In this document: positions 6,598-54,114 of the stretch, one piece after another
How positions within the stretch are numbered: position 1 is the stretch's first letter
Layout: each line of letters begins with the position of its first letter
Assembly: GCA_964550525.1 (NCBI GenBank)
Contig: CAZJZJ010000001.1
Location: 36,860 to 100,859, forward strand
Length of the DNA: 64,000 bases
Direction: 5' to 3'
Source of the DNA: an uncultured Methanosarcinales archaeon
GTDB lineage: Archaea; Nanobdellota; Nanobdellia; Woesearchaeales; JANQNQ01
Made by a program: the position numbers and the translations under genes
Notes under the pieces: model-generated
What the model saw: only the letters and a program-made list of their open reading frames with translations
What the model was told of the DNA's origin: nothing
Database searches by the model: none

Positions 6598-6601
6598 AAA
6601 G

Positions 6602-7600: not shown

Positions 7601-7647
7601 TAATTACCGAAAAACTTAAATATGCTCAAAAGAAGTATTGATTAAAA

Positions 7648-8604: not shown

Positions 8605-8672
8605 AAACCTTTAAATATGCATAATAATATTATTATTAAGATAATTACAAAAACAAAGAGGAGGTTTAGAAT

Positions 8673-30663: not shown

Positions 30664-33600
30664 ATGGCAGCAGAATCAAAAAAACTTAGCAATTATTTCT
30701 TATCCTTAGATGCAGAACTAAAAAAAGCATATAAAATTGCGTCTGCAGCAAGAAAAAAAGGCCTAGACCCTGAAGACAAAGTTGATGTACCTCTTGCTAG
30801 GAACATGGCACAAAGAGTTGAGGGTCTTGTTTCAGATATGATCCCACAACTAGTCAACACAGGTATGACTAAACGCATAGGCGAACTGGAAAAAGCGTAT
30901 AGCAAACTAGATTGGAGAGTTGCACTCAAAATTGCAGAAGAGGTAGCTAAAGGTAAATTCTGTAAATTTAAAGATAAAAAAGAAGCCATGGAAGCAGGTA
31001 TAAGAACCGGTTTCTCTTACATGACTCAAGGCATAGTGTCTGCACCGCTTGAAGGTTTTATTGGTCTTGAAATAAAAAAACGTAGAGATAGTAAGGGGCA
31101 GTACCTATCAGCTTGTTATGCTGGTCCAATAAGGGGTGCAGGTGGAACAGGTGCAGCATTTTCTATTGTACTAACTGATTATATCCGTTCAGTTATGGGC
31201 TATAGTAGGTATGATCCTTCTGAGCATGAAATAAAAAGGTTTGTTTCCGAGATCTACGACTATCATGAACGTGTAACAAACCTACAATACCTACCAACAC
31301 CAGAAGAAATAGAATTCCTAAGTCAAAAACTTCCTGTTGAAGTGAGTGGAGATCCGACAGAAGAGATTGAAGTTTCAAACTATAAGGATCTGCCTAGGGT
31401 TAAAACCAACCGGATTCGTGGGGGCATGTGTCTTGTAATGGCAGAAGGGCTTGCACAGAAAGCACCAAAATTATGGAAACGGTTGGTCAAATGGGGCAAA
31501 GAATATGGTTTAGATTGGTCATTTTTAGAGGCTTTCTTGATTTTACAAAAAAAGATTAAAGCAAAAAGTGATAAAACAGTGGAAGGAGAAACTAAGATAA
31601 CTCCGAACTATACTTTTATTAAAGACATTGTTGCGGGTAGGCCTGTATTAACACACCCTATGGCCCTTGGCGGGTTTAGGTTAAGGTATGGCCGTAATAG
31701 GTTATCTGGTTTTTCTGCTGCCTCAATCCATCCAAATACAATGAGGGTATTAAACAGCTATATTGCTACAGGCACACAATTAAAAATTGAAAGGCCAGGA
31801 AAAGGAGCAGCACTTACTCCATGCGATACAATAGAACCGCCTATAGTCAAATTAAATGATGGTAGCGTCATTAAATTAGATTCAGAACAAAAGCTTAGAG
31901 ACAACAAAAAAAAGATTAAAGAGATTTTATTCCTAGGAGATATCTTATTTAATTATGGAGATTTTTCAGAGAATGGGCAACGGCTTGCCCCTGCAGGGTA
32001 TTGTAAGGAATGGTGGGTTCAGGAGCTGGAAAAGTCAATAGTAACCACCTTTGGCAGCCTTGACCTAGAAAAAACATCAGGGTTTGCTGGGGTGGAAACA
32101 AAAGTTGTTCAAGACGTAATAGACCACCCATTAACCCACAACATTGGATCTAAGCAGGCTTTTGCGATCTCTACTAAGATGGGTTTGCCATTACACCCCT
32201 TACACACATACTACTGGAACTCTATACAAATAAAACAACTGGGTTCTTTATTAAACTGGTTTAGTAAAGCAAATCTGGTTGATGAGAAAGCCACCAATAT
32301 AAAACTGATCTTGCCCTTGGATAGAGAGCCTAAGCGCATACTTGAGCTTGTAGGAGTCCCGCATTTAGTGGTTTCTTCAGAATATATTGTTATTCTAGGG
32401 GAGGCCCTAATGTCTTTATTATTCAATCTCGGTTTTGAATCTGGGATTGCGGTTAAAGCTGCGATTGAAAAAGTTGCAAAACTAGATGGTAACCAGAAAA
32501 CCATTAATGCAATTAATCTGTTGGCAAATGTAAAGGTCAATGATCTATGTGGAACTTTTGTTGGGGCCAGAATGGGTAGACCTGAAAAAGCAAAAATGCG
32601 GAAACTTACAGGCAACCCGCAGGTTCTTTTCCCTGTTGGTGATCAAGGAGGTAGACTAAGGAGTTTTCAAGCAGCGATGGAAACAGGCAAGATCAAAGCA
32701 GATTTTCCGCTTTTTCGTTGTGATAAATGCAATAAGGATACAATATACAAAACATGTGAACATTGTGGGAAGAAAGCAAAACCAAAATTTTTCTGCCCAA
32801 TATGTGGGATAATTGACTCTGAAACCTGCCCCAAACATGGTAAAACAAAAACGCACGCCAGACAAGAGATAGATATTAAATATTATTTCAATTCTGCATT
32901 AGGTAAATTAGGTATGAATACCTATCCAGATTTAATAAAGGGTGTGAGGGGTACATCAAATAAGGACCATATCCCGGAAAACCTAACAAAAGGCATACTG
33001 CGTGCAAAACATAGTGTGTACGTGAACAAAGACGGTACAACAAGGTATGATATGTCAGAATTACCAATAACTCATTTCAAACCAAAAGAGATTGGTACAC
33101 CTTTAGATAGGTTAAAACAACTTGGTTATACTCACGATATTAATAATAAACCACTTATTGACGTAGAGCAGATTCTTGAGATCTTCCCTCAGGATGTAAT
33201 TCTTCCATCAGGTACACAGACCACAGATGAATCTGCAGATGTGGTTTTGTTGCGTGTTGCAGCGTTATAGATGAGTTACTTGTAAAGCATTATAATCTAC
33301 AGCCATATTATGGGATAAAAAATAAGTCTGATCTTGTTGGACAAGTTATACTTGGTCTAGCACCACATATCTCTGCAGCAACTGTTGGAAGGATAATTGG
33401 TTTTTCAGAAACACAAGGCTGTTTTGCACACCCCCTTTGGCATGCAGCCTTAAGAAGAGACTGTGATGGCGACGAGTGCAGTGTGATTTTGTTAATGGAT
33501 ACTTTACTTAATTTTTCTAGACAATACTTACCTGATAAACGTGGTGGGAGGACAATGGACAGCCCATTGGTACTAACTTCCAAGGTTGTGCCATCCGAAG

Positions 33601-34214
33601 TAGATGACCAGGTTCTTGGTTTAGATGTAACTTGGAAATATTCTTTGGATTTTTACCAAGCCACATTAAACAAAAAGTTTCCATGGGAGATAAAGGTCGA
33701 ACAACTTAATTCAAGAGTTGATACAGAAAAACAGTACGAGAAGATTGGTTTTACCCACGATACTAGCAATGTAAACTCAGGCATTAATTGTTCAGCATAT
33801 AAGACTTTACCAAGTATGAGAGAAAAACTCGAAGGGCAGATGGAGATAGCAACAAGAATTCGAGCCGTTGACGAAAAAGATGTAGCCAGGTTGGTTATAG
33901 AAAAACATTTTCTAAGAGATATTAAAGGCAACCTACGGAAGTTTTCTCAGCAGAAGTTTCGTTGTGTAAAATGTAATGAAAAGTATCGTAGACCACCACT
34001 TATTGGAAAATGTACTGCTTGTGGCGGTAAGATTATTTTTACTATCTCAAAAGGCTCTATTGAGAAGTACCTCGGACCAAGTATTGAGCTTGCTGAAAAA
34101 TTTGATCTGCCACCTTACCTTAAACAAACGTTAGAGCTTACTAAAACCAGGATAGAAGGGGTATTTGGTAAGGAAAAGGAAGTGCAAAGCGGTTTAGGTG
34201 CGTGGTGTGGTTAG
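30664..34214 (+). CDS. polC: DNA polymerase II (PolD) large subunit DP2, encoded in two frames and interrupted by an apparent -1 frameshift at ~33265-33270 (868-aa N-part in frame 1; C-part continues in the -1 frame)
   Basis: The N-part (30664..33270) has DP2-like sequence throughout and ends ...DVVLLRVAAL*. The -1 frame is open from 33231 and reads SVIDELLVKHYNLQPYYGIKNKSDLVGQVILGLAPHISAATVGRIIGFSETQGCFAHPLWHAALRRDCDGDECSVILLMD, which is the conserved DP2 catalytic segment with the Asp triad motif. A single-base slip at TTA|TAG restores an uninterrupted ~1183-aa DP2 of normal length. Confidence 0.85.
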
Positions 34215-39600: not shown

Positions 39601-39951
39601 AATATCGCCCCCATAAGCGTTTTATTTATAAGGGTTTAAAAAGCAAGCTTATTTATAAATACTTTGGTTTTTAAATGAAACCATTCTAAACTAAATGATG
39701 CATTTGGTATGCCCCTTTGATTTCATTTGTAATATTTCTGGTATTAAGCCTTAAAATAGCTGTTTTTGCCTGTTTCAGAAAGTGTTCAAGATGTAACGCC
39801 CCTGGTTTTCCATTGGAAAAACAAGCACCTCAGGCCCTTAAGCAATAAGTTACAAAAATGGTTGCTGCAAAATACATATTCCAAAACAATGGTATGCCTA
39901 TATAATATAACCACAAAATTTAAATATTCTACCTTAACTATCGTTAAGTTC

Positions 39952-40317
39952 ATGAAATTAATGCCACAAGAGATTGAGGTTTGGTATATCCTGCCTGCTA
40001 TTAGGAAAGAGATTGCCATTGAAATGAAAAAGCTTGGCTTGAAACAGAATGAAATAGCTCAAAAGCTTGGTCTGACAGAAGCTGCAGTTAGCCAATACCT
40101 TAAAGGTAAACGCGGTAATGATGTTGATCTGGATAAAGAGATCAAAACCAGGATAAAAGAGATCACAAAAAAACTGATTAAAGACCAGACCTGTTTAATT
40201 AAAGAAATAAACGAGTTATGCAAAAGGGCAAAAAAATGTTTGTTGTTGTGTAAAGTACACAGGAAGCATGATCATGGGCTTTCAAAGGACTGTAGCGCTT
40301 GTTTAGAACAATACTAG
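39952..40317 (+). CDS. Small HTH (XRE-like) transcriptional regulator with a C-terminal Cys/His-rich putative metal or Fe-S binding tail
   Basis: The likely start is MKLMPQE at 39952, with a TATA-like tttaaata at 39919-39926. The HTH reads NEIAQKLGLTEAAVSQYLKGKRG. The tail reads QTC..ELC..KKC..LLC..HRKHDH..DCSAC. The 3' end overlaps the iscS start. Confidence 0.5.
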   Translation: MKLMPQEIEVWYILPAIRKEIAIEMKKLGLKQNEIAQKLGLTEAAVSQYLKGKRGNDVDLDKEIKTRIKEITKKLIKDQTCLIKEINELCKRAKKCLLLCKVHRKHDHGLSKDCSACLEQY

Positions 40318-41465
40318 GTGATAATATGGAAGTATATCTTGATAATGGAGCAACCACAAGAGTGGATCCAGAAGTAGTTAAAGAAATGCAACCCTTTTTT
40401 TCAGATAAATATGGCAATGCATCTTCTCTGCACAAGTTTGGTAGAGAAGCTAAAGAGGCACTTGAGAATGCACGCGAAACAATAGCTATTTCGATTGGTG
40501 CAGAACCAAAAGAGATTATATTTACATCTGGAGGTACAGAATCAGATAACATGGCTCTACGCGGTGCAATATTCTGTGGCGAAAGAAAAGGTAAAAACAT
40601 AATTACAACCAAGATTGAACACCCAGCTATACTTAATACGTGCAAATGCCTTGAACAACAGGGAGTAAAGGTACATTATCTTGATGTAGATAAAAATGGT
40701 GTAGTGGATCTAGAACAAGTAAAAAAGCTTATTGACAAAAACACCCTACTTGTTTCAATCATGCATGCTAATAATGAGGTTGGTACAATCCAACCAATCA
40801 AGCAAGCGGCAAAGATAGCTCATGACAATGGTACTTTGTTTCATACAGACGCAGTGCAAAGTTTTACTAAAACAAAGTTTGATGTAAAGGAACTAGGTGT
40901 AGATTATGCAAGTTTTTCTGGGCACAAAATCCATGGACCTAAAGGCGTAGGTTTCCTTTACAAAAGTAAAAAAGCTCCACTCTGCCCAATGGTATATGGC
41001 GGTGGGCACGAGTTTAGTTTAAGAGCAGGTACAGAGAATGTCCCAGCAATAGTGGGCTTAGCAAAAGCAGTAAGCCTAGATACCAAATCTGATTACATCA
41101 GAAAACTTAGAGATAGATTGATTAAAGGTCTTGAGACAATACCTGATGTGAAGCTTAATGGACCAAGAAAACAGCGTCTAGTCAATAATGTCAACATGTC
41201 GTTTGCTTTTGTTGAAGGCGAAGCAATGTTGTTGCACTTAGATGAAAAAGGCATAGCTGTTTCAACAGGTTCAGCATGTTCTTCACATAGCTTAAAACCA
41301 AGCCATGTTTTGGAAGCTATAGGTGTACCCCCTGATATGATGCATGGTTCATTACGTTTTACATTATCTAGATTTAATACAGAGAAGGAGATTGACTATA
41401 CAATTAAATCTGTAAAAGAAGTAGTAGAAAAACTTAGAAAAATTAGCCCGTTTGGCAAAAGGTGA
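40299..41465 (+). CDS. iscS: Cysteine desulfurase (IscS/NifS, class V aminotransferase)
   Basis: It has the PLP-lysine region FSGHKIHGPKGVGFLY and the catalytic Cys loop STGSACSS. The probable true start is MEVYLDNGATT at ~40326. Confidence 0.85.
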   Translation: MFRTILGDNMEVYLDNGATTRVDPEVVKEMQPFFSDKYGNASSLHKFGREAKEALENARETIAISIGAEPKEIIFTSGGTESDNMALRGAIFCGERKGKNIITTKIEHPAILNTCKCLEQQGVKVHYLDVDKNGVVDLEQVKKLIDKNTLLVSIMHANNEVGTIQPIKQAAKIAHDNGTLFHTDAVQSFTKTKFDVKELGVDYASFSGHKIHGPKGVGFLYKSKKAPLCPMVYGGGHEFSLRAGTENVPAIVGLAKAVSLDTKSDYIRKLRDRLIKGLETIPDVKLNGPRKQRLVNNVNMSFAFVEGEAMLLHLDEKGIAVSTGSACSSHSLKPSHVLEAIGVPPDMMHGSLRFTLSRFNTEKEIDYTIKSVKEVVEKLRKISPFGKR

Positions 41466-41959
41466 TAACTATGTATTCAAAAAAGGTAATGGAACATTTC
41501 CGGAACCCACACAATCAAGGTAAAATCAAAGATGCAGACGGTATAGGTAAGGTTGGCAATATTAGTTGTGGAGATGTAATGTGGATCTACATCAAGGTAA
41601 AGGATGATGTTATTGTAGACATTAAATTCTCAACCTTTGGTTGCGCAGCTGCAATAGCTACAAGTTCAATGATAACAGATTTGGTTAAAGGCAAAACCGT
41701 CAAAGAAGCACTTAAGATAACTAACAAAGATGTAGCAGATTCTTTGGATGGGTTACCTCCAATAAAAATTCACTGTTCAACACTTGCAGAAGAAGGTCTT
41801 AATGAAGCTATCTATGATTACTTAACTAAAAACAAACTACCTATTCCTAAAAGTGTTGAAGAGAAACACAAAAGAATACAGGCAGAACTTGAAAAAATAA
41901 AAGAGAAATACAAGGATTTCAAAGAATTTGAAGAAGAGTTAATGAAAAACAGCAAATGA
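41462..41959 (+). CDS. iscU: Fe-S cluster scaffold protein IscU/NifU-like
   Basis: It carries the three conserved Cys (ISCGDV, FSTFGCAAAIATSS, IHCSTLAEEGL). Confidence 0.85.
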   Translation: MITMYSKKVMEHFRNPHNQGKIKDADGIGKVGNISCGDVMWIYIKVKDDVIVDIKFSTFGCAAAIATSSMITDLVKGKTVKEALKITNKDVADSLDGLPPIKIHCSTLAEEGLNEAIYDYLTKNKLPIPKSVEEKHKRIQAELEKIKEKYKDFKEFEEELMKNSK

Positions 41960-42789
41960 TACTTGTACGTTACGCAGAACTTGCTTTGAAAGGCGGAAAC
42001 AGAAATTATTTTGAAAAACGTTTAGTTAGGAATCTAAAGGATTGTCTGAAAAAAAACAAAGTTTCTTTTGAAAAGATCGAGCGTTTGCCAGGCAGGATAC
42101 TTATTCATACAGATAATTCTTGTAAACAATTAAAAAATGTTTTCGGAGTGCACTCTTACAGCAACTGTGTTGTTGCCAAGCTTGATATTGTGGAGATTAA
42201 GAAAGCAGCATTACCTTTAATTAAGAGTTTGGATAATAAAAAAACATTTAGGGTAAGTGCACATAGATGTGACAAAAGCATAAAACTCAAATCTGCGCAA
42301 ATTAATCAAGAGTTAGGGCAGTTTATTGTCGAGAAAACATGTGCAAAAGTTAGTCTTAAGGATTTTGATTTTGAACTTGGTGTAGAACTTATTAGTGGCA
42401 ATGCATATATCTTTAACGAACGTGTTAAATGTCTTGGCGGGTTGCCTTTAGGTGTAGAAGGTAGAGTGATTGCTTTAATTGAAAACAAGAAAGACCAGCT
42501 TGCTGCATTACTTATGATGAAACGTGGTTGCGCTGTTATACCAGTTGGACTTAGAAAAGTGGATATTTCTCTACTTAAAGTGTATTCCTACGGAACAAAA
42601 CTAGAACTTGAACTAGTTAAAGATTTAAAAGAATTAGGTGTGCTAGCAAAAAAATATTGTGTTGAACTTTTTGTAACTGGCCAAACACTTAAAGATTTTA
42701 AAGAACTTGGATTAGATATGGTACATCTAATGCCTTTAATTGCATTTGATGAGAATGAAATAAAACAGAAACTTGAAGAATTAAAATGA
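41956..42789 (+). CDS. ThiI-like THUMP-domain protein with a degenerate, truncated PP-loop (probable pseudo-enzyme or tRNA-binding partner)
   Basis: The N-terminus ILVRYAELALKGGNRNYFEKRL matches ThiI ferredoxin-like plus THUMP. The ThiI block GLPLGVEGRVIALI-ENKKDQ-LAALLMMKRGCAVIPV at 42481-42498 has ENKKDQ in place of the SGGxDS PP-loop. Only ~90 aa follow it. It is ATGA-coupled to the next gene. Confidence 0.6.
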   Translation: MILVRYAELALKGGNRNYFEKRLVRNLKDCLKKNKVSFEKIERLPGRILIHTDNSCKQLKNVFGVHSYSNCVVAKLDIVEIKKAALPLIKSLDNKKTFRVSAHRCDKSIKLKSAQINQELGQFIVEKTCAKVSLKDFDFELGVELISGNAYIFNERVKCLGGLPLGVEGRVIALIENKKDQLAALLMMKRGCAVIPVGLRKVDISLLKVYSYGTKLELELVKDLKELGVLAKKYCVELFVTGQTLKDFKELGLDMVHLMPLIAFDENEIKQKLEELK

Positions 42790-43640
42790 CTAATATGTTT
42801 ATTAAAAAAATCGAGAATAAAGTTAAGAAAACTATAAAAGATTACAAACTTTGTAATAAAAAAGAAAAGATACTTGTAGCTTGTAGTGGTGGTAAAGATA
42901 GTACAACCATTCTTTATATTTTAAAGAAACTTGGCTATAATGTAGAAGCTATAACAGTCAATGCTGTTATTGGTAATTATTCACAAAAAAGCCTTGACAA
43001 TCTGGTTGCTTTTTGTAAAAAACATTCTGTTGTACTACATCTTCTTTCTTTCAGAGATGAGTTTGGTTACTCTTTATGTTATCTTAGAAAAGTTATTAAT
43101 TCTAAAGGGCATAAACTAAAATCCTGTACAATCTGCGGTGTATTAAGAAGATATCTTTTGAACCGTAAAGTAAGAAAGTTAAAGGCTAGCAAAATTGTAA
43201 CTGGCCATAACCTTGATGATGAAGCGCAAGCAGTAATGATGAATTTCCTAAGAGGCAGCCTAGAACTTAATGCGCGTATGGGTCCTATGACAGGCATAGT
43301 TAGACACAGTAGTTTTGTACCAAGGATAAAACCCTTGTATTTCTGTACAGAAAACGAGGTTGAAAGATATTCAAAACTAATGAAATTTCCCGTCTCTTAC
43401 AAAGAATGCCCTTGTAGAACAGATGTATACCGTAATATGGTTAGAAAAGAACTTAACAAGTTAGAGAAAACAGATGCGGATGTTAAAGCAAACATTATTA
43501 AATCATACCTGAAACTACTTCCTAAGCTAAAAAAACATTTTAAAGCTGTAAAAGAACCAAACAACTGTAACATGTGCGGTGAGCCTGCTAAAAAAGAGGT
43601 TTGCCAATCTTGTAATATTTTGGGTTTAGTGAAAAAATGA
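42786..43640 (+). CDS. PP-loop ATP pyrophosphatase of the TtuA/NcsA/Ctu1 tRNA thiolation family
   Basis: An intact PP-loop SGGKDS sits at 42885-42902. Cys clusters include CNKKEK...CS, CTICG, CPCRTD and CNMCGEP...CQSCN, as Zn-finger or Fe-S ligands. It is co-operonic with iscS and iscU. Confidence 0.65.
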   Translation: MTNMFIKKIENKVKKTIKDYKLCNKKEKILVACSGGKDSTTILYILKKLGYNVEAITVNAVIGNYSQKSLDNLVAFCKKHSVVLHLLSFRDEFGYSLCYLRKVINSKGHKLKSCTICGVLRRYLLNRKVRKLKASKIVTGHNLDDEAQAVMMNFLRGSLELNARMGPMTGIVRHSSFVPRIKPLYFCTENEVERYSKLMKFPVSYKECPCRTDVYRNMVRKELNKLEKTDADVKANIIKSYLKLLPKLKKHFKAVKEPNNCNMCGEPAKKEVCQSCNILGLVKK

Positions 43641-44221
43641 GAGATATTGTGTTCCCAAAGAACAATGAGAAAGAGTTTATTTCATTAGCTGAAAAACTAG
43701 GCTACAATGAACTTATTTTTGTTTATGATCAGAAAAACCTCAAAAAACAAATATTCAAAACAAAAATTAAAATCATATTTGGTGTAAAAACAAACCCAAA
43801 ACAAATCCAGAAAGCAAGAAACAAATCAGATTTTGTAATTGTAGAAGCAGATGAACATTCTAGAATGGCTTTTGAAAACAAGCATGTTTCTTTAATTTAC
43901 GCTCTTGAAAAACTTGAAAAACATGATCATATGCATTTTCGTAAATCTGGCCTTAACCAAGTACTATGTAGTCTTGCTTGTAAAAAAGACATAATTGTTG
44001 GTTTTAGTTTCAACTCAATATTGAATTCTTCAGAAAAATGGAGATCTAGATTACTCGGCAGGATGATGCAGAATGTCAAACTTTGCAGAAAGTACAAGGT
44101 TAAAACAACAATTGCTTCTTTTGCAACAAAACCAATGGAAATGCGTTCACCAGCTGAACTAAAAAGTTTTGGCATAATTCTAGGCATGCACGCTAAGAAA
44201 GCTAGAGAAAGTCTGCACTAA
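43637..44221 (+). CDS. rnp3: RNase P protein component 3 (Rpp30)
   Basis: The block IIVGFSFNSILNSSEKWRSRLLGRMMQNVKLCRKYKVKTTIASFATKPMEMRSPAELKSFGIILGM aligns well with archaeal Rpp30, as recalled from Pyrococcus Rpp30. Confidence 0.7.
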   Translation: MRDIVFPKNNEKEFISLAEKLGYNELIFVYDQKNLKKQIFKTKIKIIFGVKTNPKQIQKARNKSDFVIVEADEHSRMAFENKHVSLIYALEKLEKHDHMHFRKSGLNQVLCSLACKKDIIVGFSFNSILNSSEKWRSRLLGRMMQNVKLCRKYKVKTTIASFATKPMEMRSPAELKSFGIILGMHAKKARESLH

Positions 44222-44295: not shown

Positions 44296-47200
44296 GTGGT
44301 GAAAAATAAGTTAGCGATTTTATTACTCTTTATTATCATTAGTTTAGTTTCTGTTAGTTTTGTGAGTGCACGTGCGTGTGATAATATATGGAAATGGCGA
44401 AATCATTGGTGTCCTATTGTACCTACTTCAGAAGATTTCCGAGAAGTTTCAATGGATGATGATTTTAATTTCCAGGTATTAAGTATTTGTTATGATGAGA
44501 CCAATACGGGCGTTTATTATACTTATTTTTATCTGGATGAAGATAAAGATGTAAAGTTTTATTTGACTAGTACAGGTTCTGCAGGTGTTAAATTATCTAT
44601 TGATGGCAAAAAAGTAGCTACACACGGGAAAGAAGCAGAAGTCGTTCTTGAAAAGGGATGGCATTATGCAGAGATTGTTATCCGAAGATGGGGGCATATT
44701 AATTTTGATGTAAGCCTTGAAGTAAACGATGGAACATTATCAAAAATAGCCACAAAAGCAGGTACAATGGAAGGATGTGAATGGGACGAAGATAAGGATG
44801 GTTTTGTTGAAGGAGACGATTATACTGAGGATGATTGTGATGATTCTGATCCAACTATCTACCCTTTTAGAATTTTTGAAGAAGAGCCATGCGATGGGAT
44901 ACTTCACGATTGTAAGAATAGGCAAAGATTTGAAATTGATGGCGAGTCTAGAGAAGCTGTCTATAACGAAATCTGTGAGGGTGATGATAATCTTGCAACA
45001 TGTGAAAGCCGTTGTGGTGAGTGGGGTGAAACAATAACACCTGACACGAACAGATGTTGTGGTGATGATAGCATCAGTGAATTTGGTTTAATACAAGAAA
45101 AGAATGATGATGAAACGATTTGTAAAAAAGGCGAAGATTCGTGTGATTGGGGATGGCTAACCACATCAGAGGCAGGTTCAGGTAAGATACTTACTGTAAG
45201 AAGAGATATTGTAAAAAATGAAGACATTATAATGGATAAAAACCGGGAAATAATCAAACAACAAGGCAAAACAAAATTTGTACCCTGTGGTAATTTTTCA
45301 GCCGTAGTTGAGAAATATGGCCCCAATAATTGTACTGTTAATGTAGATTTTGGTGCAATTATATGTGAAAATCCGCCACTCTCAACAGAACTTGTAGAAC
45401 TGGGCGGTCCAAATAAGGATAACTTATCTATAGAAAATGAAGATGGCGTTTACCAAAAAAAGATTGATTTTTATATCTATTTAAATGAAGATATAACAGC
45501 AACAAAGACTGCAAAGATTTCTGCTAAAGCTGACAACAAATTAACATACTTACTTGATGGTAAACAAATCTTTAGTTTTACAAAAGAAGATCTTGCAGTG
45601 TGGGATCAGGAACCAGAAGTCTTTGAAACAGAATTTAAATATGGTAGCCGTGCTGGTTGGCGACACATTAGTTTACTTCTTGATAACTGGGGTGCTTATG
45701 GTGGCCTTGAAGTCTGGCACGAAATAGAGGGTTTTGAGACCCCTATTACAGATGTAGATACTGCAGGAGAATGCGATAATATTATTCCTTTAAGCGAGGC
45801 AGAACCAGTTACTGTACCAGACCCAGACATCAAATCAACAATCTATGATGTTATCCCTTTCAATAAAAAATGGTATGTGTGTGATCCAGAGGGAACTATT
45901 AGGTTGGATCCTGGTTATGGGACGAATATATTGGATGAATTTGATACACCACAGGTAGAGACCTCTACTGCTCTTCAATCAACTATCTCTTTGGATAGCC
46001 AGGGTGCTGGCGATACTGATTCTTATATTGGAGATGGGATTGATATTGATGCTGTTGCAATTGAAGATGCTTTAGAGGGGTTTAGTATTGGAGGTAGTCC
46101 TGTATCTGCCTCTTTAGGGAGTAGTGGTACTCCAGGGAGCAGGAGCAGTACTGAAATTGAGTATGATGCTTTTATGTGTTACAAAGAAGGTGATATGGGG
46201 TCAATTGGAGAATGTTGTGGCAATGATTTAGGTATCTGTTTTAACAAAGGAATATTAGGGCTACCAAAAGTAAGGCGTATGGGGGAGCCGTTATCCTATA
46301 TCGTCGAAGTCCATGATTTAAACAAGAAGAAACACAACACAGTTCTTCAGATACCTGTAAAACATAAAGCACGTGAAGATATTCCACCCTATACCTATTC
46401 GATTCCCGGTGGCGATGTGCCAATTTTACATTATACAAATTGGAAAGGGTTCAAGGCGCTTGAATTCTATTTTGCTTCTTTACGTCCAGCTTTAGTTAGA
46501 CTGATCATTAAAGATACAAATGAAAAAGAACATGATTTTGGTCCAATCCTAAAATACGCTATTGAAAATAAAAGAATAACTGAAGACGGTGAACTAGCAC
46601 CCTCGCAACAGATGCGACACATTTATATTCCTATTGATGGCGAACTCGGGGAAGTAGATAAAGGCAATATCTCTGAGATAATATTTACAGCAAGGAAGCA
46701 AGATCTACCAGCGGACTACATTGAAACAAAGATTATAGACAAAATGGATCGTGAAAGCTACAATGTATGGGTTTTCGATAGAATGCATCTTACCTATGAT
46801 TATGAGACAGAATCTGAAAAAAATAAGTACTGTTCCTTTACAAAGGAATGGGTTTATGACTTTGATGTAGAAGATAATGAAGCAAACCCCATCTGTAACC
46901 AGATACCTTCATTCACTTGGACAGGTACACAATGTTGTGGTGATGATATCGTATATACAGATGAAACATACGAGGATGAAAGCGGTGGCTGCTGGAAAGG
47001 CAACTTTATTGCAGATGATACAACATTGATGGAGATAGAATTTGAACATGATACCTATAACGGAAAACACACAGATATCTGTAGAGGTACAAGATGCGAA
47101 TACCCTATTTTATATCAAGATTGGCCTTCTGAAGTAACTGAGATAGGCGATGTAAGTACAGATTCTGATTTTTATAATGTTAGGATAACAAACACAGAGG

Positions 47201-49101
47201 ATGCAAAAGAAGCAACCATCTCTGTAGAGTACGTACCGCAACAAATCTTGTTTTTCGGTGGTGCGTTTAGAGGCTGTGCTGCAGATGGTTTTGAAGATAT
47301 TATCGATGCTGAACATGAATATGGTTATTGTAAAGTGATTTCAGGCAGCAACCATTTCTGTTCTTATGGAAGTAAGTTTGCTGGTGCTTTTAATAATGGT
47401 AAACCATATTGGAGTTCTGAATCTTCTGGCACAGCTCCTTCTTACCTAAGGAATAATAGCAAAGAGTTACCTGGAGATAACACAGATGATCATTTTGGTA
47501 CAACTGAGATTAATCCAGATCATAATGATAAAGGTTGTTGTCCAGCTGATTATTGTTGGAACGGGACTGTTTGTGTAGAAGGGATAGAAGAACCTTTTAG
47601 TATAAGCAACTATGAATCTAGCCCAGAAGCATTCACAAAAAAGTTTAGTTACAATAATCCAACTGCAGATTTTGACATGTATGTTTGTTACAAAGAAGAT
47701 GCTGTAGCTAACTGGAACAAAACACATTACAAAGAAGATTGGTATGATTCAGCAGATACAGCTGGCAGACGTATAGGTAGAGGTTATTGTATGGATGGTA
47801 GCCAGTGTTGGACAAGTGCTGGTTGTAAAGATAACGGCTGGTATACTAATGAAGAAAGAGGTTATTTCTCTGTAGGCAATGAGATGACTGACCGTTTCTG
47901 TGAAAATGGTAATTGGTCAACCAGGACAAAGCTGATAGCATTAGAGTTACTAAATTTTGTTAAAGATAAAGGGGATTACACCTTGTTTTGTGATACAAAC
48001 AAGAATGCACTTAATTTTTATACAGATTCCTGGAAACCCATAAATGAAGATACTAATAATTTCTGCGTGCTTGTATACAAAGAAAACAATGATGCTGATG
48101 TTGAGAAGAAAGTAGCTGTAGGTACATCATTGAATAAGCCTATAGAGGCGATAAAGCAGGTATTGTTGAACGAAGGCGTATTAAAAGGGGACACAACTCT
48201 TAGTATTTGTACAGATGCACCTGCCACAGAGGACAGTGTCTATGGGACTTATGTAAATTGTGACGGGAGCACCGATGTTGAAGAACAAAAACTCTGGTAC
48301 AATGCAAAAACAGAATCCCTGATCTATAGTGCACATGGTATAAATTTGCAATCTACAACAATCGTTTTTGCAGATTTCATGAACCTGCTTTTCAATCCTA
48401 TCATGGCTTTCACAGACATTGTCATAAATATTATTAGGCCCCAAACGACAGAGAGTCCAACTAATATACCTGTACCTGTTGAATACTGGGATCTATTCCA
48501 GTCAAAGGATTTCAAGACAGTTTATCTGGAAGAAAGCGGCGATATGACTGTAAGGGGTATAATCGAGCAAACAACTAGGGGCAAGAAATATCTTGCTATT
48601 GATTATGAGAATTCTCCAGTGGATATCTGCTCAGCAATCAGCCTGTACAATAAAAAGATAGGTGGGGAGTTTACTTGCCAACCTACAATAAACAATTCAG
48701 TATTAACATATAGGATTGCTTCTGAAACCACAGACATGATAGTCGGTTTCAAGGTATGGAAAGAAATCACTGCAAAGATTAGGTCAATAGATTTTGGAAG
48801 CGAATTAGGTGATACCGGTCCAGGAGCAGTAGTTAAAGATCTAGAAGAAAGCCATTATGCAAGAAAATACATTAAATTTGAAGCTGAAGAAAACGAAGAA
48901 GTTCTTTCTTATTATTGGGATCTAAATGTTACATCGACTGAGGAAGCAATTAACGGAGAAAGGTTTGGCAGGAAGATCACACACTACTATGAAGGGCCAG
49001 GAGATTATACAGTCACCTTAATTACAATAGGTAATGACGGTTCTTACTCAACTGATTCAATAGATATCGAAGTTACTGAAGAACCCGTAACAACTGGTTA
49101 A
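44296..49101 (+). CDS. Giant secreted Cys-rich surface protein 1 (1601 aa) with a cleavable signal peptide, a MopE-like acidic Cys motif, CCGDD motifs and a C-terminal PKD domain
   Basis: It has a GTG start and a GAGGG Shine-Dalgarno sequence at ~44286. The signal peptide is LAILLLFIIISLVSVSFVSARAC. The block CEWDEDKDGFVEGDDYTEDDCDDSDPTIYP lies at ~44776-44865. The motifs RCCGDD and QCCGDD are present. The C-terminal segment YYWDLNVTS...HYYEGPGDYTVTLITIGNDG is a PKD fold motif at ~48830-49098. Confidence 0.7.
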   Translation: MVKNKLAILLLFIIISLVSVSFVSARACDNIWKWRNHWCPIVPTSEDFREVSMDDDFNFQVLSICYDETNTGVYYTYFYLDEDKDVKFYLTSTGSAGVKLSIDGKKVATHGKEAEVVLEKGWHYAEIVIRRWGHINFDVSLEVNDGTLSKIATKAGTMEGCEWDEDKDGFVEGDDYTEDDCDDSDPTIYPFRIFEEEPCDGILHDCKNRQRFEIDGESREAVYNEICEGDDNLATCESRCGEWGETITPDTNRCCGDDSISEFGLIQEKNDDETICKKGEDSCDWGWLTTSEAGSGKILTVRRDIVKNEDIIMDKNREIIKQQGKTKFVPCGNFSAVVEKYGPNNCTVNVDFGAIICENPPLSTELVELGGPNKDNLSIENEDGVYQKKIDFYIYLNEDITATKTAKISAKADNKLTYLLDGKQIFSFTKEDLAVWDQEPEVFETEFKYGSRAGWRHISLLLDNWGAYGGLEVWHEIEGFETPITDVDTAGECDNIIPLSEAEPVTVPDPDIKSTIYDVIPFNKKWYVCDPEGTIRLDPGYGTNILDEFDTPQVETSTALQSTISLDSQGAGDTDSYIGDGIDIDAVAIEDALEGFSIGGSPVSASLGSSGTPGSRSSTEIEYDAFMCYKEGDMGSIGECCGNDLGICFNKGILGLPKVRRMGEPLSYIVEVHDLNKKKHNTVLQIPVKHKAREDIPPYTYSIPGGDVPILHYTNWKGFKALEFYFASLRPALVRLIIKDTNEKEHDFGPILKYAIENKRITEDGELAPSQQMRHIYIPIDGELGEVDKGNISEIIFTARKQDLPADYIETKIIDKMDRESYNVWVFDRMHLTYDYETESEKNKYCSFTKEWVYDFDVEDNEANPICNQIPSFTWTGTQCCGDDIVYTDETYEDESGGCWKGNFIADDTTLMEIEFEHDTYNGKHTDICRGTRCEYPILYQDWPSEVTEIGDVSTDSDFYNVRITNTEDAKEATISVEYVPQQILFFGGAFRGCAADGFEDIIDAEHEYGYCKVISGSNHFCSYGSKFAGAFNNGKPYWSSESSGTAPSYLRNNSKELPGDNTDDHFGTTEINPDHNDKGCCPADYCWNGTVCVEGIEEPFSISNYESSPEAFTKKFSYNNPTADFDMYVCYKEDAVANWNKTHYKEDWYDSADTAGRRIGRGYCMDGSQCWTSAGCKDNGWYTNEERGYFSVGNEMTDRFCENGNWSTRTKLIALELLNFVKDKGDYTLFCDTNKNALNFYTDSWKPINEDTNNFCVLVYKENNDADVEKKVAVGTSLNKPIEAIKQVLLNEGVLKGDTTLSICTDAPATEDSVYGTYVNCDGSTDVEEQKLWYNAKTESLIYSAHGINLQSTTIVFADFMNLLFNPIMAFTDIVINIIRPQTTESPTNIPVPVEYWDLFQSKDFKTVYLEESGDMTVRGIIEQTTRGKKYLAIDYENSPVDICSAISLYNKKIGGEFTCQPTINNSVLTYRIASETTDMIVGFKVWKEITAKIRSIDFGSELGDTGPGAVVKDLEESHYARKYIKFEAEENEEVLSYYWDLNVTSTEEAINGERFGRKITHYYEGPGDYTVTLITIGNDGSYSTDSIDIEVTEEPVTTG

Positions 49102-49172
49102 TTCTTTATCCACATAAAAAACACTATATTTATATATTCTTTAACTTAATTTAAAACTTAAAAGAGGGGAAA

Positions 49173-52100
49173 ATGGTAAAGAGGTCTCAGATTACTATGT
49201 TTATGCTACTTGGGATAGTATTGTTAGTCATATTTGGGTTCTTATTCTTCACATCGCAGGTTGTTAATAAGATGAGAATCCAAAAACGTGTTGAGCAGAT
49301 CAGCACAGATATTTCACAGACCTCTGTAGTAAAAGATTATGTGACCCTTTGTTTAGATAAAGCAGCAAAAGAAGGATTAATACTTCTCGGCGGCCAAGGT
49401 GGCTCAATCTATGCACATCAAGGCGGCACAATCAATAAAGATGAAGCAATACCTTTCAGACTTCAACATTACGGTACAGAAAGAGATTTTGAAGTTGATT
49501 TAAACATTAAGAAACCTGTTGCAGGTGAATCACCTTGGATCTTTCCACCTGATTATCCTGTAGCTTATAGGTTGTTGGCTGTGGATCATAGGTCTTTATC
49601 TGTAATTGACAGCCTTTATAGCAGCCGCAGCTTGTATGGTAATCTTAGTTTATCTCAATTGTGTGATCGTGAAGGTCCAAACAAATTTGGTGGCAGATTA
49701 TCAACATGTCATGAAAATTTTTACGATCGTGTAGGACAAATCATATCTATTCAAGAACAGCTTTCATATTTCATTGCAAACTATACTGAAATGTGTGCAG
49801 ATTTCTCTACATTCGCAACATTGTTTGGTTATAATGTAAGTTTGGATCTTAGTGCAGGTGATGTAAAATCGACTGTGACACTTGGAGAAAAAGATGTTGC
49901 TATAGATCTTTTGTTTCCGCTTGTTGTAAGGGTTGAAAACTATGTTCCTGTAACTAAAACAATCTCATTTACAACCAGAGTACCTGTAAGACTAAAAAGA
50001 ATCTATGGTTTGGTTTACTTTATTACTCAATTCGATTCAAGAAGCATATTCTTTAACGCAACATCTAGACATAACATATCTCTGATTGGAGCACTGTGTA
50101 AAGATGCAGATGACAAACCTGTAGATTGTCTAGACCAATCAATGTCTATTGTAAAATATAAAACCGTCTGCAGACTTTGTGAAAAGAATTATACAGATGT
50201 AATCCAGATTATTGATAGAGCTTCAAACCTTGCAGGAAACCCTTATATTTTCCAATTTGCAGTAGAAAACAGGAACCCTGCTTTGGATTACATCGGCCAG
50301 GCAGTAACAGACGAAGAATTAGCTAAAGATTATGACGTGTTTTATTCTTACAAACGTCCGATCGAACTAACACCTAAAGCAGAAGACCCTGACGAAGATA
50401 CAACATTTTTTAGTTATCATGGTTGGAAAGCAGATTATGAAGAACAATGGGGAGTTACAGCAGATAATAGTGTAGAGATTATCAAAACCCCTCTTACTCC
50501 ACCAGACCAAAACCAATGGCATGCTTCAGATCCATATCAAAACACAAGAAGAGATGCAACCATACAATTGACAGATAAGGACATTGGCCCTCATAATGTA
50601 ACTATAATGGTTAAAGATGATGAAGGCTTGTGGGATTCTCAAAAGATCCGTATGGTTATATACGATGATCCAGATCTACATAGCAATGGTACAAACATGT
50701 ATGATGATATAGATGATGACCGTGGATCTATTGAAGATCCTTACGTCTTAGATGCGCGAAGAGCCGGTACTATACTTGGCCAGATAATTTCTAATTTTAG
50801 GGTTGATTATGAATGGAAGGATCTTTTTGAAGGCGTACAGCATGGTCCTGTAAGTACTCCACGATACATCCTACCATCTGATGCTCCTGATATTATTACC
50901 ATCCCTCTTGAGTCTTTCAAAAGAGATTTCTTCGAAGAAAAATTAGCAACCACACCTGCTCCTCAGAAACATGAGATCTTGCTTAATAGTCTTTTGTTTG
51001 GTCAAGGTGGCGCAGTTGCACAAGAAAAGGTGGAAGTTGATGTATACAAATGCCTTCCGCATAGAAACTCAAGCTACTCTTATCCTTTCCATCTTTATTT
51101 TAAGCAAATGGACCCGTTCCAAGCTAACCATACTTGTTGTAAAGATGGGATAGATTCATGGGGTACAATCGTTGGAAAAAACGAGAATAAAGAATGTTTT
51201 AGATTAGAAGAAAGCATGGATGGGTACTATATGTGTGGTAGACCTATTCAAGATACTTTTTATCCTCCTGCAAAAGAAGGAGCATATGCATTAAAGAATA
51301 CTTCGGCCGAATTCAAAAGAGACGAGAGCAACTACCCAAGTGGTTCTGCTGGACAGAATGATGTTTATAAAAGAGAATTCACTGTAATGTGTGGTGGTGA
51401 AAGAGGTAATATCTGTAACGGTACTTCAAAAGATATATGGGAGATTGTGAATCCAACTGGGTGCACAGATCTTGTTGACGGTGGCCAGGATGAACGTTGT
51501 AAAGGTTGTGACAGATATGGGTTAAGCAACCCCAGAGCCGGATGTACTGTATATCCGCCAGGCAAAACATTTGAATCTGTAAATAAAGATGCACTAGGTT
51601 TGACTGGCACAAGAGCAGACGGTATATGCAACAACCATTGGAAATGTACAGATAACGTAGATGGGAAATATTATGATCGAACACAAGACACAGAAGAAGT
51701 AGAATTCATAGCACAAGCATTTTGTAAGGATGGTGTTTGTAAATTTGTAAAACACCCTTCTGAAACACATAACGGAAATATTGTAACCCAATCCTGTGAT
51801 TCGTTTGATAAGTATGAGGCACTAGGTAGTCCACCTTACACTAAACGTGCAACTACTTATTGTGTAGAAAAATCAACGATACCACCTGGTTCACTTACAG
51901 ATAGCTCCATTAAACCAGAAACATTCTACGTAACCAGAGATTATTATTGTTCAGCTAATTCAGATGCAAACCAAGACGATAAATGTGCTTTTAGGTACGT
52001 AGACCTAGAATCACTTGATGGTACACGGAAGTGGTGTGGTGCTTGCGCTAGTAAGGGTGTTGAACTTATTAAAGCAGGTGAAACTGGTTTAGGTGGTTAT

Positions 52101-53345
52101 GTTGATGTAAACTTAAATATAAAAGCATGTTGTGGTGATGATATAAATGAAAATGTTATTTTAGAAGAACAAACAGGTGAAAATTTTTGCTGTAACAAAG
52201 AAGATGATTGTGTGGATGATAGCGAATGTTTTGACGATGCTACTTCCAGGAATATAGGCGAAACAGCAGGTTTAACATCCAATAGAGCAGATTACGAGAT
52301 CTGTCATACAAACAAATGGTATGATCAGGATTCAGTAAATGTACCTGATGGAATCGGTGGTCAATTATCAGATGGTGCATTGTGTTTAAAAGCATTAGAT
52401 GGATCATCACTAGAAAACGCATGTAACCTTGGAAGTTGTTGGGTTGAAGAAGGAGAAACTGTTTCTTTTGGCGGTTACTACCACTTAAACCAGAACGATG
52501 TAACTGCTGGCTGCTGCGGTGATGATGAAAACGAAAACTTTGTTACGAGAGGTATAGGTACTAAAGCTTGCTGTAAATCTGGCTTGCCAAACATCTGCGT
52601 AGATTCTGGTAATGACTGCAGAGACGAGTATCCAGAAGAACAAACCTGTAATGATGGACTTGACAATGATTGCGATGGGGAAGTAGATTGTGAAGATGAT
52701 GATTGTTTAGGTAAAACTTGTGATTCAGGTGCTGTTTGTATTCAGAACGAATTATGTGTAACTGAATACTGCCAGGATTCAAATGGTAATAATTATCCTG
52801 GTTGTAGTGATTCAAGATGCGCAACCAATGACTTTTGTGATACAACACCTAGTACAACAGATATGGATGGTAGATGTATATTGGATGTATGTTGTACGAA
52901 AAGCCAAGCAGCTTCAGATGGTTCAAATGTGGTTTGTAGTAATGATCCTAACGCAAATTGCGTGGGTAATGATGGCTGGAAATGTGGCAACCTTGGGGCC
53001 ACTGATGGTTGGGAACCTGACAGTACACCGATTACAAGATGTGATGGTAGTACTGGTAGTTGTGTGATATGTGCTGAGCCAAATATAGAAGGTGACTACT
53101 GCGAAAGCGGTTGCGGCGCACCTTTAGAATGCGATGAAGCACAAAAAAGTTTAACTTATGATTTCCTATATGCAACTTCATCAAAACTTTGTATAAATGC
53201 TTGTTCAAACGCTTGCACTACCGTTTCCAAAGTAGGCTCATCATATGTTTGTGGTTGTGTTGATGGTAGTAGCCAATGTTGGAAATTAGATCATAACAAT
53301 AATATTGTAGAAGGAAACTGCAATGGGTTAGTTTGTGAAACATAA
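49173..53345 (+). CDS. Giant Cys-rich surface protein 2 (1390 aa) with an N-terminal signal anchor and a C-terminal MopE-like, EGF-like Cys-dense region
   Basis: It has a GAGGGG Shine-Dalgarno sequence at ~49163. The N-terminal TM helix is ITMFMLLGIVLLVIFGFLFF. The C-terminal 300 aa is extremely Cys-rich, with CNDGLDNDCDGEVDCEDDDC at ~52646-52710 and ACCGDD and GCCGDD motifs. Confidence 0.7.
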   Translation: MVKRSQITMFMLLGIVLLVIFGFLFFTSQVVNKMRIQKRVEQISTDISQTSVVKDYVTLCLDKAAKEGLILLGGQGGSIYAHQGGTINKDEAIPFRLQHYGTERDFEVDLNIKKPVAGESPWIFPPDYPVAYRLLAVDHRSLSVIDSLYSSRSLYGNLSLSQLCDREGPNKFGGRLSTCHENFYDRVGQIISIQEQLSYFIANYTEMCADFSTFATLFGYNVSLDLSAGDVKSTVTLGEKDVAIDLLFPLVVRVENYVPVTKTISFTTRVPVRLKRIYGLVYFITQFDSRSIFFNATSRHNISLIGALCKDADDKPVDCLDQSMSIVKYKTVCRLCEKNYTDVIQIIDRASNLAGNPYIFQFAVENRNPALDYIGQAVTDEELAKDYDVFYSYKRPIELTPKAEDPDEDTTFFSYHGWKADYEEQWGVTADNSVEIIKTPLTPPDQNQWHASDPYQNTRRDATIQLTDKDIGPHNVTIMVKDDEGLWDSQKIRMVIYDDPDLHSNGTNMYDDIDDDRGSIEDPYVLDARRAGTILGQIISNFRVDYEWKDLFEGVQHGPVSTPRYILPSDAPDIITIPLESFKRDFFEEKLATTPAPQKHEILLNSLLFGQGGAVAQEKVEVDVYKCLPHRNSSYSYPFHLYFKQMDPFQANHTCCKDGIDSWGTIVGKNENKECFRLEESMDGYYMCGRPIQDTFYPPAKEGAYALKNTSAEFKRDESNYPSGSAGQNDVYKREFTVMCGGERGNICNGTSKDIWEIVNPTGCTDLVDGGQDERCKGCDRYGLSNPRAGCTVYPPGKTFESVNKDALGLTGTRADGICNNHWKCTDNVDGKYYDRTQDTEEVEFIAQAFCKDGVCKFVKHPSETHNGNIVTQSCDSFDKYEALGSPPYTKRATTYCVEKSTIPPGSLTDSSIKPETFYVTRDYYCSANSDANQDDKCAFRYVDLESLDGTRKWCGACASKGVELIKAGETGLGGYVDVNLNIKACCGDDINENVILEEQTGENFCCNKEDDCVDDSECFDDATSRNIGETAGLTSNRADYEICHTNKWYDQDSVNVPDGIGGQLSDGALCLKALDGSSLENACNLGSCWVEEGETVSFGGYYHLNQNDVTAGCCGDDENENFVTRGIGTKACCKSGLPNICVDSGNDCRDEYPEEQTCNDGLDNDCDGEVDCEDDDCLGKTCDSGAVCIQNELCVTEYCQDSNGNNYPGCSDSRCATNDFCDTTPSTTDMDGRCILDVCCTKSQAASDGSNVVCSNDPNANCVGNDGWKCGNLGATDGWEPDSTPITRCDGSTGSCVICAEPNIEGDYCESGCGAPLECDEAQKSLTYDFLYATSSKLCINACSNACTTVSKVGSSYVCGCVDGSSQCWKLDHNNNIVEGNCNGLVCET

Positions 53346-53348
53346 AAA

Positions 53349-53972: not shown

Positions 53973-54114
53973 ACCAAAAAGCTTATAAATGCAAACCCCT
54001 ATTTTCAATTAAAAAAAGGTGTAGGGTGTATTTGGTTTTTATAGACGTGAGTTGCCTCACTTAGTTATCATTTTCATTAATGAACAGTAATGTAAATAGA
54101 AAAGGGGAATATTA

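Follow-up and report, generated by a model that had tools for sequence, protein, structure and literature searches.

Genes of the locus

The window analysed here, a 64-kb stretch of DNA from an uncultured archaeon (contig CAZJZJ010000001.1), carries a gene for a ThiI-like protein that is predicted to be non-catalytic and that overlaps a gene for an apparently intact thiolase of the TtuA/NcsA family. The window is archaeal and low in GC (~36%), with MCM, TBP, Cdc6, PolD, RFC, FEN1, Hjc, TFE, a tRNA splicing endonuclease and Trm5 among its genes, and the close homologues of both the ThiI-like and the TtuA-like protein bear the names Woesearchaeota or Nanoarchaeota, so that the DNA comes from a DPANN archaeon. 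Five genes on the + strand (iscS, iscU, the ThiI-like gene, the TtuA-like gene and the gene for Rpp30) are chained by 4-nucleotide (nt) overlaps. The features of this chain are as follows (aa, amino acids; AF2, AlphaFold2):

40299-41465, + strand: cysteine desulfurase of the NifS/IscS type (Aminotran_5, E 4e-92; TIGR03402 NifS, 530.5 bits, E 2e-159)
41462-41959, + strand: Fe-S scaffold of the NifU/IscU type (NifU_N, E 1e-47; TIGR03419, 200.8 bits, above cut-off; NifU, E 7e-60)
41956-42789, + strand: PH1313-type ThiI-like protein, 277 aa, predicted non-catalytic (Pfam, TIGR00342, alignments, AF2, Foldseek)
42481-42498, + strand: ENKKDQ (residues 176-181) at the position of the PP-loop motif SGGxDS (alignment columns)
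42786-43640, + strand: PP-loop thiolase of the TtuA/NcsA family, 284 aa, predicted to be [4Fe-4S]-dependent (profiles, AF2, Foldseek)
42885-42902, + strand: intact SGGKDS PP-loop of the TtuA-like protein (invariant in an alignment of 32 homologues)
43637-44221, + strand: RNase P subunit Rpp30, component 3 (RNase_P_p30, E 3e-15; NF046111, E 1.5e-24)

Both junctions of the ThiI-like gene can be read directly in the sequence: its start shares an ATGA with the iscU stop at 41956-41959, and its stop shares an ATGA with the start of the TtuA-like gene at 42786-42789. A previous inspection of the letters and their open reading frames (ORFs), here called the sequence-only reading, had noted the second of these overlaps as well as the position of the module behind iscS and iscU. 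The overlap is as it described; the profile matches confirm the two Fe-S genes, and the same arrangement recurs in many Woesearchaeota and Nanoarchaeota. In most DPANN loci, Rpp30, here the last gene joined by a 4-nt overlap, follows either the ThiI-like or the TtuA-like gene. Within the 64-kb window we found neither a canonical ThiI nor a second PP-loop enzyme, the only S[GST]GxDS motif in any frame being the SGGKDS of the TtuA-like protein. Likewise, no ORF of 55-120 aa with a GG end, as expected for a ubiquitin-like sulfur carrier (TtuB/SAMP), is present in the window.

Domains kept and lost in the ThiI-like protein

The ThiI-like protein is composed of a ferredoxin-like domain at its N-terminus (NFLD, aa 1-70), a THUMP domain (aa 71-160) and the remnant of a PP-loop pyrophosphatase (PPase) domain (aa 161-277). 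Pfam detected ThiI_fer at residues 1-69 (E 1e-18) and THUMP at residues 77-153 (E 4e-11), and the ThiI PP-loop model matched residues 166-199 only, below threshold. The ThiI model TIGR00342 is covered from position 1 to 204 of 373 and scores 141.1 bits, under its trusted cut-off of 264.5. Together these matches bear out the claim that similarity to ThiI extends from the N-terminus through the THUMP domain.

When 120 homologues were aligned with MAFFT, E176-NKKDQ181 fell into the columns of the PP-loop, which contain S-GGID-SPVAAW in canonical rows and E-NKN-SLLA, with one residue fewer, in short rows; the PP-loop motif is missing from all short-form homologues. An L-INS-i alignment with archaeal and bacterial canonical ThiI gives the same placement, so that the exchange of SGGxDS for ENKKDQ, suspected by the sequence-only reading, stands. 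The L-INS-i alignment also revealed that the CxxC segment, the GxxxGQVASQT DI-loop and the C-terminal loop with the catalytic Cys are deleted; the first of these corresponds to the CxxCK segment of the canonical archaeal rows (loci L017, L025, L055 and L065). Kept in the PPase remnant are the GGLPxGxxG linker, beta1, the MKRG helix and the terminal RPL..EI helix. The domain is truncated, as had been proposed, but not simply so: besides the loss at the C-terminus there are internal deletions, and the terminal helix is retained.

In Thermotoga maritima ThiI, the PP-loop, the DI-loop and Arg264 bind the ribose and phosphates of ATP, and Cys344 is catalytic (PMC4041423). Furthermore, a CxxC + C set of cluster ligands defines the [4Fe-4S] class of archaeal ThiI (PMC9825150). 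Since the elements for ATP binding and Cys344 are deleted in the ThiI-like protein, adenylation and thiolation by this protein should be impossible. Judged by its sequence, ORF 41956-42789 is a non-catalytic ThiI derivative in which every element for adenylation and sulfur transfer has been lost; we refer to such proteins as dead ThiI.

A family that includes PH1313

Homology searches with the ThiI-like protein returned 715 sequences at E <= 1e-5; the ~106 best of them measure 245-310 aa and show the same losses. Based on the multiple sequence alignment (MSA) of the family, the AF2 model has a predicted local distance difference test score (pLDDT) of 95.2 and a predicted TM score (pTM) of 0.91. 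Its best Foldseek match is 1vbk_A (TM 0.91, root-mean-square deviation 2.8 Å, 32% identity, full length), and the canonical ThiI structures 4kr7 and 2c5s reach a TM of ~0.8. The same entry, PH1313 of Pyrococcus horikoshii, was retrieved by phmmer with E 1e-38 over residues 2-227. PH1313 likewise combines an NFLD and a THUMP domain with a shrunken PPase-like domain, and the PP-loop is gone in both proteins, the corresponding segments being ILHDELSALA in PH1313 (HDELSA at the motif) and IENKKDQLAA in the window protein. The two differ in length (307 versus 277 aa), and Pyrococcus encodes canonical ThiI/TtuI homologues besides. A 2023 review of THUMP enzymes lists PH1313 as a 'ThiI-like protein' without the conserved ThiI residues whose activity was never confirmed (PMC9957541), and elsewhere it has been called a truncated TtuI (PMC9825150). 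What the sequence-only reading took for a local ThiI remnant is instead a new addition to an old and widespread family that is known, structurally solved (structure 2005) and functionally orphan.

The family alignment contains 12 invariant and 22 nearly invariant columns. Mean pairwise identity is 47% in the NFLD and 51% in residues 161-200 of the remnant domain, which form the most conserved stretch. Little or no variation is seen in the MKRG and RPL motifs of the remnant domain; positions 177-181 vary among homologues. The MKRGC motif also occurs in canonical ThiI; its Cys192 is present in 32 of 43 family sequences and replaced by V, L or I in 10. RNA contacts of T. maritima ThiI have been located in the NFLD loop Arg10-Lys19, at Arg21 and Trp44-Arg46, at Lys104 on the strand of the CCA groove and in the helix at Gly126 (PMC4041423). 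Their equivalents are almost without variation among the 43 sequences: R5 (42/43), K12 (43/43), R16 (40/43), R47 (43/43), R/K99 (42/43) and G121 (42/43). Because these contacts are near-invariant, we describe the ThiI-like protein as a putative non-catalytic binder of the tRNA acceptor stem and CCA end, in which NFLD and THUMP apparently still function in tRNA binding. A neighbour-joining tree of the N-terminal 200 residues of short and canonical ThiI was unreliable, owing to poor trimming of some rows and a shallow signal, and was not used.

The conservation also bears on the suspicion that the gene is a decaying pseudogene or an assembly artefact without function. All catalytic motifs are gone from the protein, and the assembly is not free of frameshifts, with at least one near 33230-33270 in the essential gene for PolD DP2. 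Against this, the ORF is uninterrupted and aligns collinearly over its whole length with more than 100 equally long homologues taken from independent assemblies, it retains the invariant residues of the family, the model from the family MSA is confident (pLDDT 95), and the architecture is shared with the crystallised Pyrococcus protein (1VBK). We rejected this explanation, which is effectively refuted by the family-wide conservation and to which we assign hardly any weight.

The TtuA-like neighbour

The TtuA-like protein retains the hallmarks of an active thiolase, as the sequence-only reading had proposed. In an alignment of 32 homologues, the SGGKDS PP-loop, the putative cluster ligands C114, C117 and C208 and the C-terminal Zn finger (C261, C264, C273 and C276) are all invariant, and C114, C117 and C208 align to C128, C131 and C220/222 of PH0300. 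The latter protein, a TtuA, is the best match in the PDB (E 4e-47). The AF2 model (pLDDT 90.6) superposes on TtuA with a Foldseek TM of 0.87 (5mkp) and 0.90 (5ztb), above the value of 0.78 for NcsA (6scy). The TIGR00269 profile is passed with 66.1 bits at a cut-off of 62.75. PP-loop, the three cluster Cys, C-terminal Zn finger and fold are therefore those of TtuA (PH0300, Thermus thermophilus) and NcsA (Methanococcus maripaludis), whereas the scores lie below the equivalog cut-offs for TtuA (NF049949, 191.8 against 450) and NcsA (NF047749, 156.7 against 500). A further difference from TtuA concerns the residue after CxxC, which in the window protein is Arg, as in Ncs6, and not the Lys that is the site of TtuB conjugation. 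By its similarity to TtuA the enzyme may modify U54, with U8 or U34 as alternatives.

The N-terminal Zn finger (CxxC ... CxxH) is missing from the window protein, whose alignment begins at PH0300 residue 27 and which has no Cys pair before the PP-loop. The finger is absent in 111 of 120 close homologues and kept in ~9; a decayed copy was seen in P0220/L002. Its loss has occurred repeatedly, as shown by the intermingling of sequences that have the finger with others that lack it and by this decayed copy. Beyond the known cluster and Zn ligands, the DPANN TtuA-like family has three more invariant cysteines (C77, C98 and C210; alignment A2); PH0300 has a Cys matching C77 and none matching C98 or C210.

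Coupling of dead ThiI and TtuA-like genes

We scanned the neighbourhoods of ThiI-family genes at 80 loci, one genome per species, which were annotated by local phmmer. A TtuA-like gene lies within 6 kb of the dead ThiI gene in 23 of 33 DPANN loci. Ten of these pairs overlap or are at most 60 nt apart on the same strand, and in four more the TtuA-like gene is the next gene at a distance of 190-270 nt. At the paired loci, iscS-iscU is frequently found upstream and Rpp30 downstream. A further look-up added L165, whose operon is identical to that of the window. Start/stop overlaps between the two genes recur in at least 10 divergent genomes, the ThiI-like proteins of which are only 35-50% identical. 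Even after rearrangement the two genes stay close, being convergent in L113-117 and L127 and dispersed within 4 kb in L167. In the scan of 80 loci, a TtuA-like neighbour was found at none of the 39 loci with canonical ThiI; at the bacterial loci of this kind, iscS or nifZ is located upstream (iscS directly so in L051-L079).

Coupling goes along with the architecture of the thiolase. The N-terminal Zn finger is absent from all 12 tightly coupled TtuA-like proteins (from 13, with one retaining it, if L165 and L084 are added), while among the loosely linked ones it is absent in 5 and present in 15; Fisher's exact test on the table of 12/0 versus 5/15 gives 3e-5, a statistic that ignores phylogeny.

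A separate arrangement was observed in L095 (4063-7000), where a tandem pair of TtuA-like genes precedes, and overlaps, the gene for a canonical ThiI of 397 aa that bears the PP-loop. Genes for tRNA thiolation therefore cluster even beside an intact ThiI.

A possible adaptor for a tRNA thiolase

We favour the reading that the dead ThiI-like protein acts as a tRNA-presenting or specificity adaptor for the TtuA-like thiolase, a reasonable hypothesis to which we give a probability of roughly 0.4. The cysteine desulfurase, the Fe-S scaffold, the ThiI-like and the TtuA-like protein are encoded in one polycistronic, translationally coupled message. IscS and IscU would build the [4Fe-4S] cluster of the thiolase and supply sulfur, and the TtuA-like subunit would adenylate and then thiolate a tRNA uridine. 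The dead ThiI, produced in stoichiometric amounts through translational coupling, would grip the acceptor stem and CCA end and present the tRNA in trans.

There are concrete precedents for such a mechanism. In the ThiI homodimer, the NFLD/THUMP part of one subunit serves the active site of the other (PMC4041423). Kre33/NAT10 is served by Tan1/THUMPD1, a THUMP adaptor without catalytic activity, and the THUMP domain of Pus10 guides catalysis at U54/U55, the region modified by TtuA (both PMC9957541). Ncs6 and Ncs2 form a heterodimer (PMC3980101). Moreover, a TtuA homologue and 5-methyl-2-thiouridine at position 54 (m5s2U54) have been documented in the DPANN archaeon Nanoarchaeum equitans (PMC7337903).

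Several observations weigh against this adaptor reading, besides the disregard of phylogeny in the Zn-finger statistic. In a metagenome scan that started from the TtuA side, a dead ThiI gene was near only 5 of 37 (~13%) TtuA-like loci flanked on either side by 1.5 kb or more, and it was absent near 17 of 19 TtuA-like genes without the Zn finger. The gene pair, the distribution of which the sequence-only reading had proposed to follow, is therefore recurrent in DPANN when viewed from ThiI (23/33) but weakly linked when viewed from TtuA (5/37). A chimeric query against 5.8 billion proteins returned no THUMP+TtuA fusion among the best 120 matches, which were TtuA-like proteins only, at ~50% coverage; this negative result is weak because only 8000 candidates were scored. 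No THUMP domain was seen on the top 120 TtuA-like homologues either. Furthermore, the remnant domain belongs to the PP-loop lineage of ThiI and not to that of TtcA/TilS, so that it need not form an interface with TtuA like that of the ThiI dimer.

The remaining points concern other genomic company of dead ThiI. In three loci (L006, 5228-7041; L008, 5962-7996; L021, 5977-8006), it overlaps a radical-SAM methylthiotransferase of the MiaB/MtaB type; the dead ThiI is shorter still in these loci (249-263 aa), and the partner has UPF0004 and Radical_SAM domains, joined in L008 and L021 by a TRAM domain. In all eight Thermoplasmata loci (L040, L043, L044 at 5989-8745, L045, L050, L058, L059 and L062), a PanE/ApbA ketopantoate reductase gene overlaps that of dead ThiI, in most of them followed by a D-2-hydroxyacid dehydrogenase gene; there is no obvious link between this coupling and tRNA thiolation. 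Elsewhere the neighbours are genes for DeoC, ornithine/arginine decarboxylase, UbiA or ribosomal proteins. The SpoIIM-MCM-TBP-ThiI-like(-Rpp30) backbone seen in the window also recurs without a TtuA-like gene or iscSU, and the linkage may therefore partly be inherited synteny. The partnership of dead ThiI with the TtuA-like protein is neither specific nor obligatory. Of the split system put forward by the sequence-only reading, the combination of a dead, predicted tRNA-binding ThiI with an intact thiolase is supported, and the division of labour between the two is a hypothesis.

Alternative roles of dead ThiI

Given these other contexts, it is quite possible, although we do not prefer it, that dead ThiI has a tRNA-binding role of its own, independent of the TtuA-like enzyme, and that their adjacency stems from an inherited iscS-thiI operon together with a tRNA-maturation cluster including Rpp30. 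Candidate roles are those of a tRNA chaperone, a sensor of the mature CCA end, a partner of a canonical ThiI encoded elsewhere or a general adaptor for multiple enzymes. The family is found in many contexts without TtuA, and the synteny of ThiI or ThiI-like genes with Rpp30 and of MCM-TBP-ThiI-like persists without it. In addition, canonical ThiI genes of bacteria typically have iscS as their direct upstream neighbour too (L051-L079), and the position of dead ThiI is therefore ancestral. Several ThiI homologues, including PH1313, are present in Pyrococcus (PMC9957541).

Two Woesearchaeal loci fit the same picture. One of them (L025, 5950-7134) encodes a canonical ThiI with STGIDS (394 aa) at the syntenic site upstream of Rpp30; the other (L012, 5894-6991) has at this site a longer form of 365 aa that has lost the PP-loop and kept more of the PPase domain, which makes it a possible intermediate in degeneration. 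Together they suggest that an ancestral iscS-thiI operon degenerated in situ. An independent role is harder to reconcile with the start/stop overlaps with the TtuA-like gene across at least 10 genomes whose ThiI-like proteins have diverged to 35-50% identity, with the persistence of the two genes as neighbours after rearrangement and with the correlation between Zn-finger loss and tight coupling.

The position of the ThiI-like gene between iscU and the gene of the client enzyme, overlapping both, would also suit a protein that delivers sulfur or Fe-S clusters. On this account dead ThiI would bridge IscS/IscU to the TtuA-like or MtaB-like enzyme by an interaction derived from the ancestral one of IscS with ThiI, and would not primarily present tRNA. 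Its coupling to two unrelated [4Fe-4S]-dependent enzymes of tRNA sulfur insertion in different DPANN lineages is consistent with this, as is the high conservation of residues 161-200 with Cys192 in 32/43 sequences. However, Cys192 is replaced by V, L or I in 10/43 and its MKRGC motif occurs in canonical ThiI too, the invariant residues correspond to RNA contacts, and iscSU or a gene for an Fe-S client is absent near many family members. We consider a delivery function unlikely.

The Thermoplasmata coupling to PanE and a 2-hydroxyacid dehydrogenase, which fits tRNA thiolation poorly, together with the invariance or near-invariance of the MKRG and RPL motifs, could point to a remnant Rossmann-like domain that has acquired a new ligand or chemistry as part of another enzyme or a sensor. 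At the former active site, however, there is no new conserved polar or catalytic motif, positions 177-181 being variable, and all elements that contact ATP in T. maritima ThiI are deleted. Moreover, an activity of PH1313 was still unconfirmed in a review of 2023, 18 years after release of the structure (PMC9957541). Such a function is very unlikely in our view.

Returning to the favoured role as an adaptor, a broader version would also accommodate the methylthiotransferase loci. PH1313-type proteins would then be dedicated tRNA-presenting subunits of heteromeric [4Fe-4S]-dependent enzymes of tRNA sulfur insertion, TtuA-like in most Woesearchaeota and MtaB-like in others. We regard this generalisation as conceivable but doubtful. 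If it is true, these proteins would be the prokaryotic thiolation counterpart of Tan1-Kre33 and Ncs2-Ncs6, and the THUMP domain would serve as a 'CCA ruler' that replaces the lost N-terminal zinc finger of the thiolase and sets the modified position.

Relation to known systems

Canonical ThiI/TtuI, the tRNA U8 4-sulfurtransferase (T. maritima 4KR6, Bacillus anthracis 2C5S and the [4Fe-4S] class of M. maripaludis and Pyrococcus furiosus), shares with the window protein a homologous NFLD/THUMP part including the RNA contacts, as well as the start (GGLPxGxxG, beta1, MKRG helix) and the end (RPL..EI) of the PPase domain. Another shared trait is an upstream iscS, which in numerous thiI loci of bacteria is the immediate neighbour. 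The window protein differs in having no SGGxDS, CxxC+C ligands, GQVASQT DI-loop, Arg264 region or Cys344 loop.

Ncs2/Ctu2 is a PP-loop-related but non-catalytic protein of the TtcA family, a degenerate paralogue of Ncs6. The Ncs6/Ncs2 (Ctu1/Ctu2) system, which forms 2-thiouridine at position 34 (s2U34), resembles the proposed pair in combining an active thiolase of the TtuA/Ncs6 family with a second subunit (PMC3980101); in the window, however, the putative second subunit is a ThiI derivative that contributes a THUMP domain.

The role proposed for the ThiI-like protein is modelled on Tan1/THUMPD1, a THUMP (+NFLD) protein without catalysis of its own that is needed by a separate tRNA-modifying enzyme (PMC9957541). 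Tan1 represents another THUMP lineage, the best matches of the window protein being ThiI_fer and TIGR00342; a Tan1-type model was not reported for it. Furthermore, Tan1 has no remnant PPase domain, and its partner is an acetyltransferase and not a thiolase. The Tan1-Kre33 complex is experimentally supported, whereas the pair of ThiI-like and TtuA-like proteins is known from gene neighbourhood.

In the literature searched we found no description of the DPANN iscS-iscU-ThiI-like-TtuA-like operon, which appears to be unreported. It supplies the PH1313 family with a testable context, that of a non-catalytic THUMP adaptor of an Fe-S tRNA thiolase. If the adaptor reading holds, the principle realised by Tan1-Kre33 in acetylation and by Ncs6-Ncs2 in eukaryotic U34 thiolation would extend to archaeal thiolation, archaea with reduced genomes would have turned a dead enzyme into a module for specificity, and a structural-genomics orphan unexplained since 2005 would receive a function. 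If it does not hold, a correction of annotation remains. The labels 'thiamine biosynthesis protein ThiI' and 'tRNA uracil 4-sulfurtransferase' are widespread on these genes in databases, and they are wrong because dead ThiI proteins catalyse neither reaction. The presence of a dead ThiI gene should accordingly not count as evidence for synthesis of 4-thiouridine at position 8 (s4U8).

Further features of the window

The gene cluster starts with a small regulator-like gene, the ORF of which overlaps the start of iscS:

39766-40317, + strand: helix-turn-helix (HTH_3) regulator-like gene with a Cys/His-rich C-terminal tail (Pfam HTH_3, residues 86-116)

Its true start is probably internal to this ORF, as homologues comprise 105-146 aa. 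The Cys/His-rich tail of the protein reads CKRAKKCLLLCKVHRKHDHGLSKDCSAC, and an HTH_3 gene upstream of iscS was also observed in five other DPANN loci (L005, L010, L020, L031 and L165). The protein may sense Fe-S or redox state and regulate the gene cluster accordingly, a function like that of IscR, to which it is unrelated.

Further genes of tRNA maturation are located 20 kb upstream, namely a methyltransferase of the Trm5/TYW2 type (20139-21167, - strand), a tRNA splicing endonuclease (23378-23974, - strand) and, in the same cluster, a protein with a metallo-beta-lactamase fold (24050-24943, + strand) that could be RNase Z. No tRNA genes were found across the whole window.

The gene for DP2, the large subunit of PolD (30664-34214, + strand), is frameshifted. 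The ORF 30664-33270 ends with ...VVLLRVAAL*, and the DP2 sequence resumes in another frame from ~33230 (RCGFVACCSVIDELLVKHYNL) and continues into ORF 33483-34214. The split is either an assembly error or a genuine frameshift in an essential gene.

Directly 3′ of Rpp30, three very large ORFs of 1601, 1390 and 2790 aa occupy positions 44296-62487 on the + strand. The first of them (1601 aa) is probably a surface protein, given its hydrophobic N-terminal segment and high Cys content.

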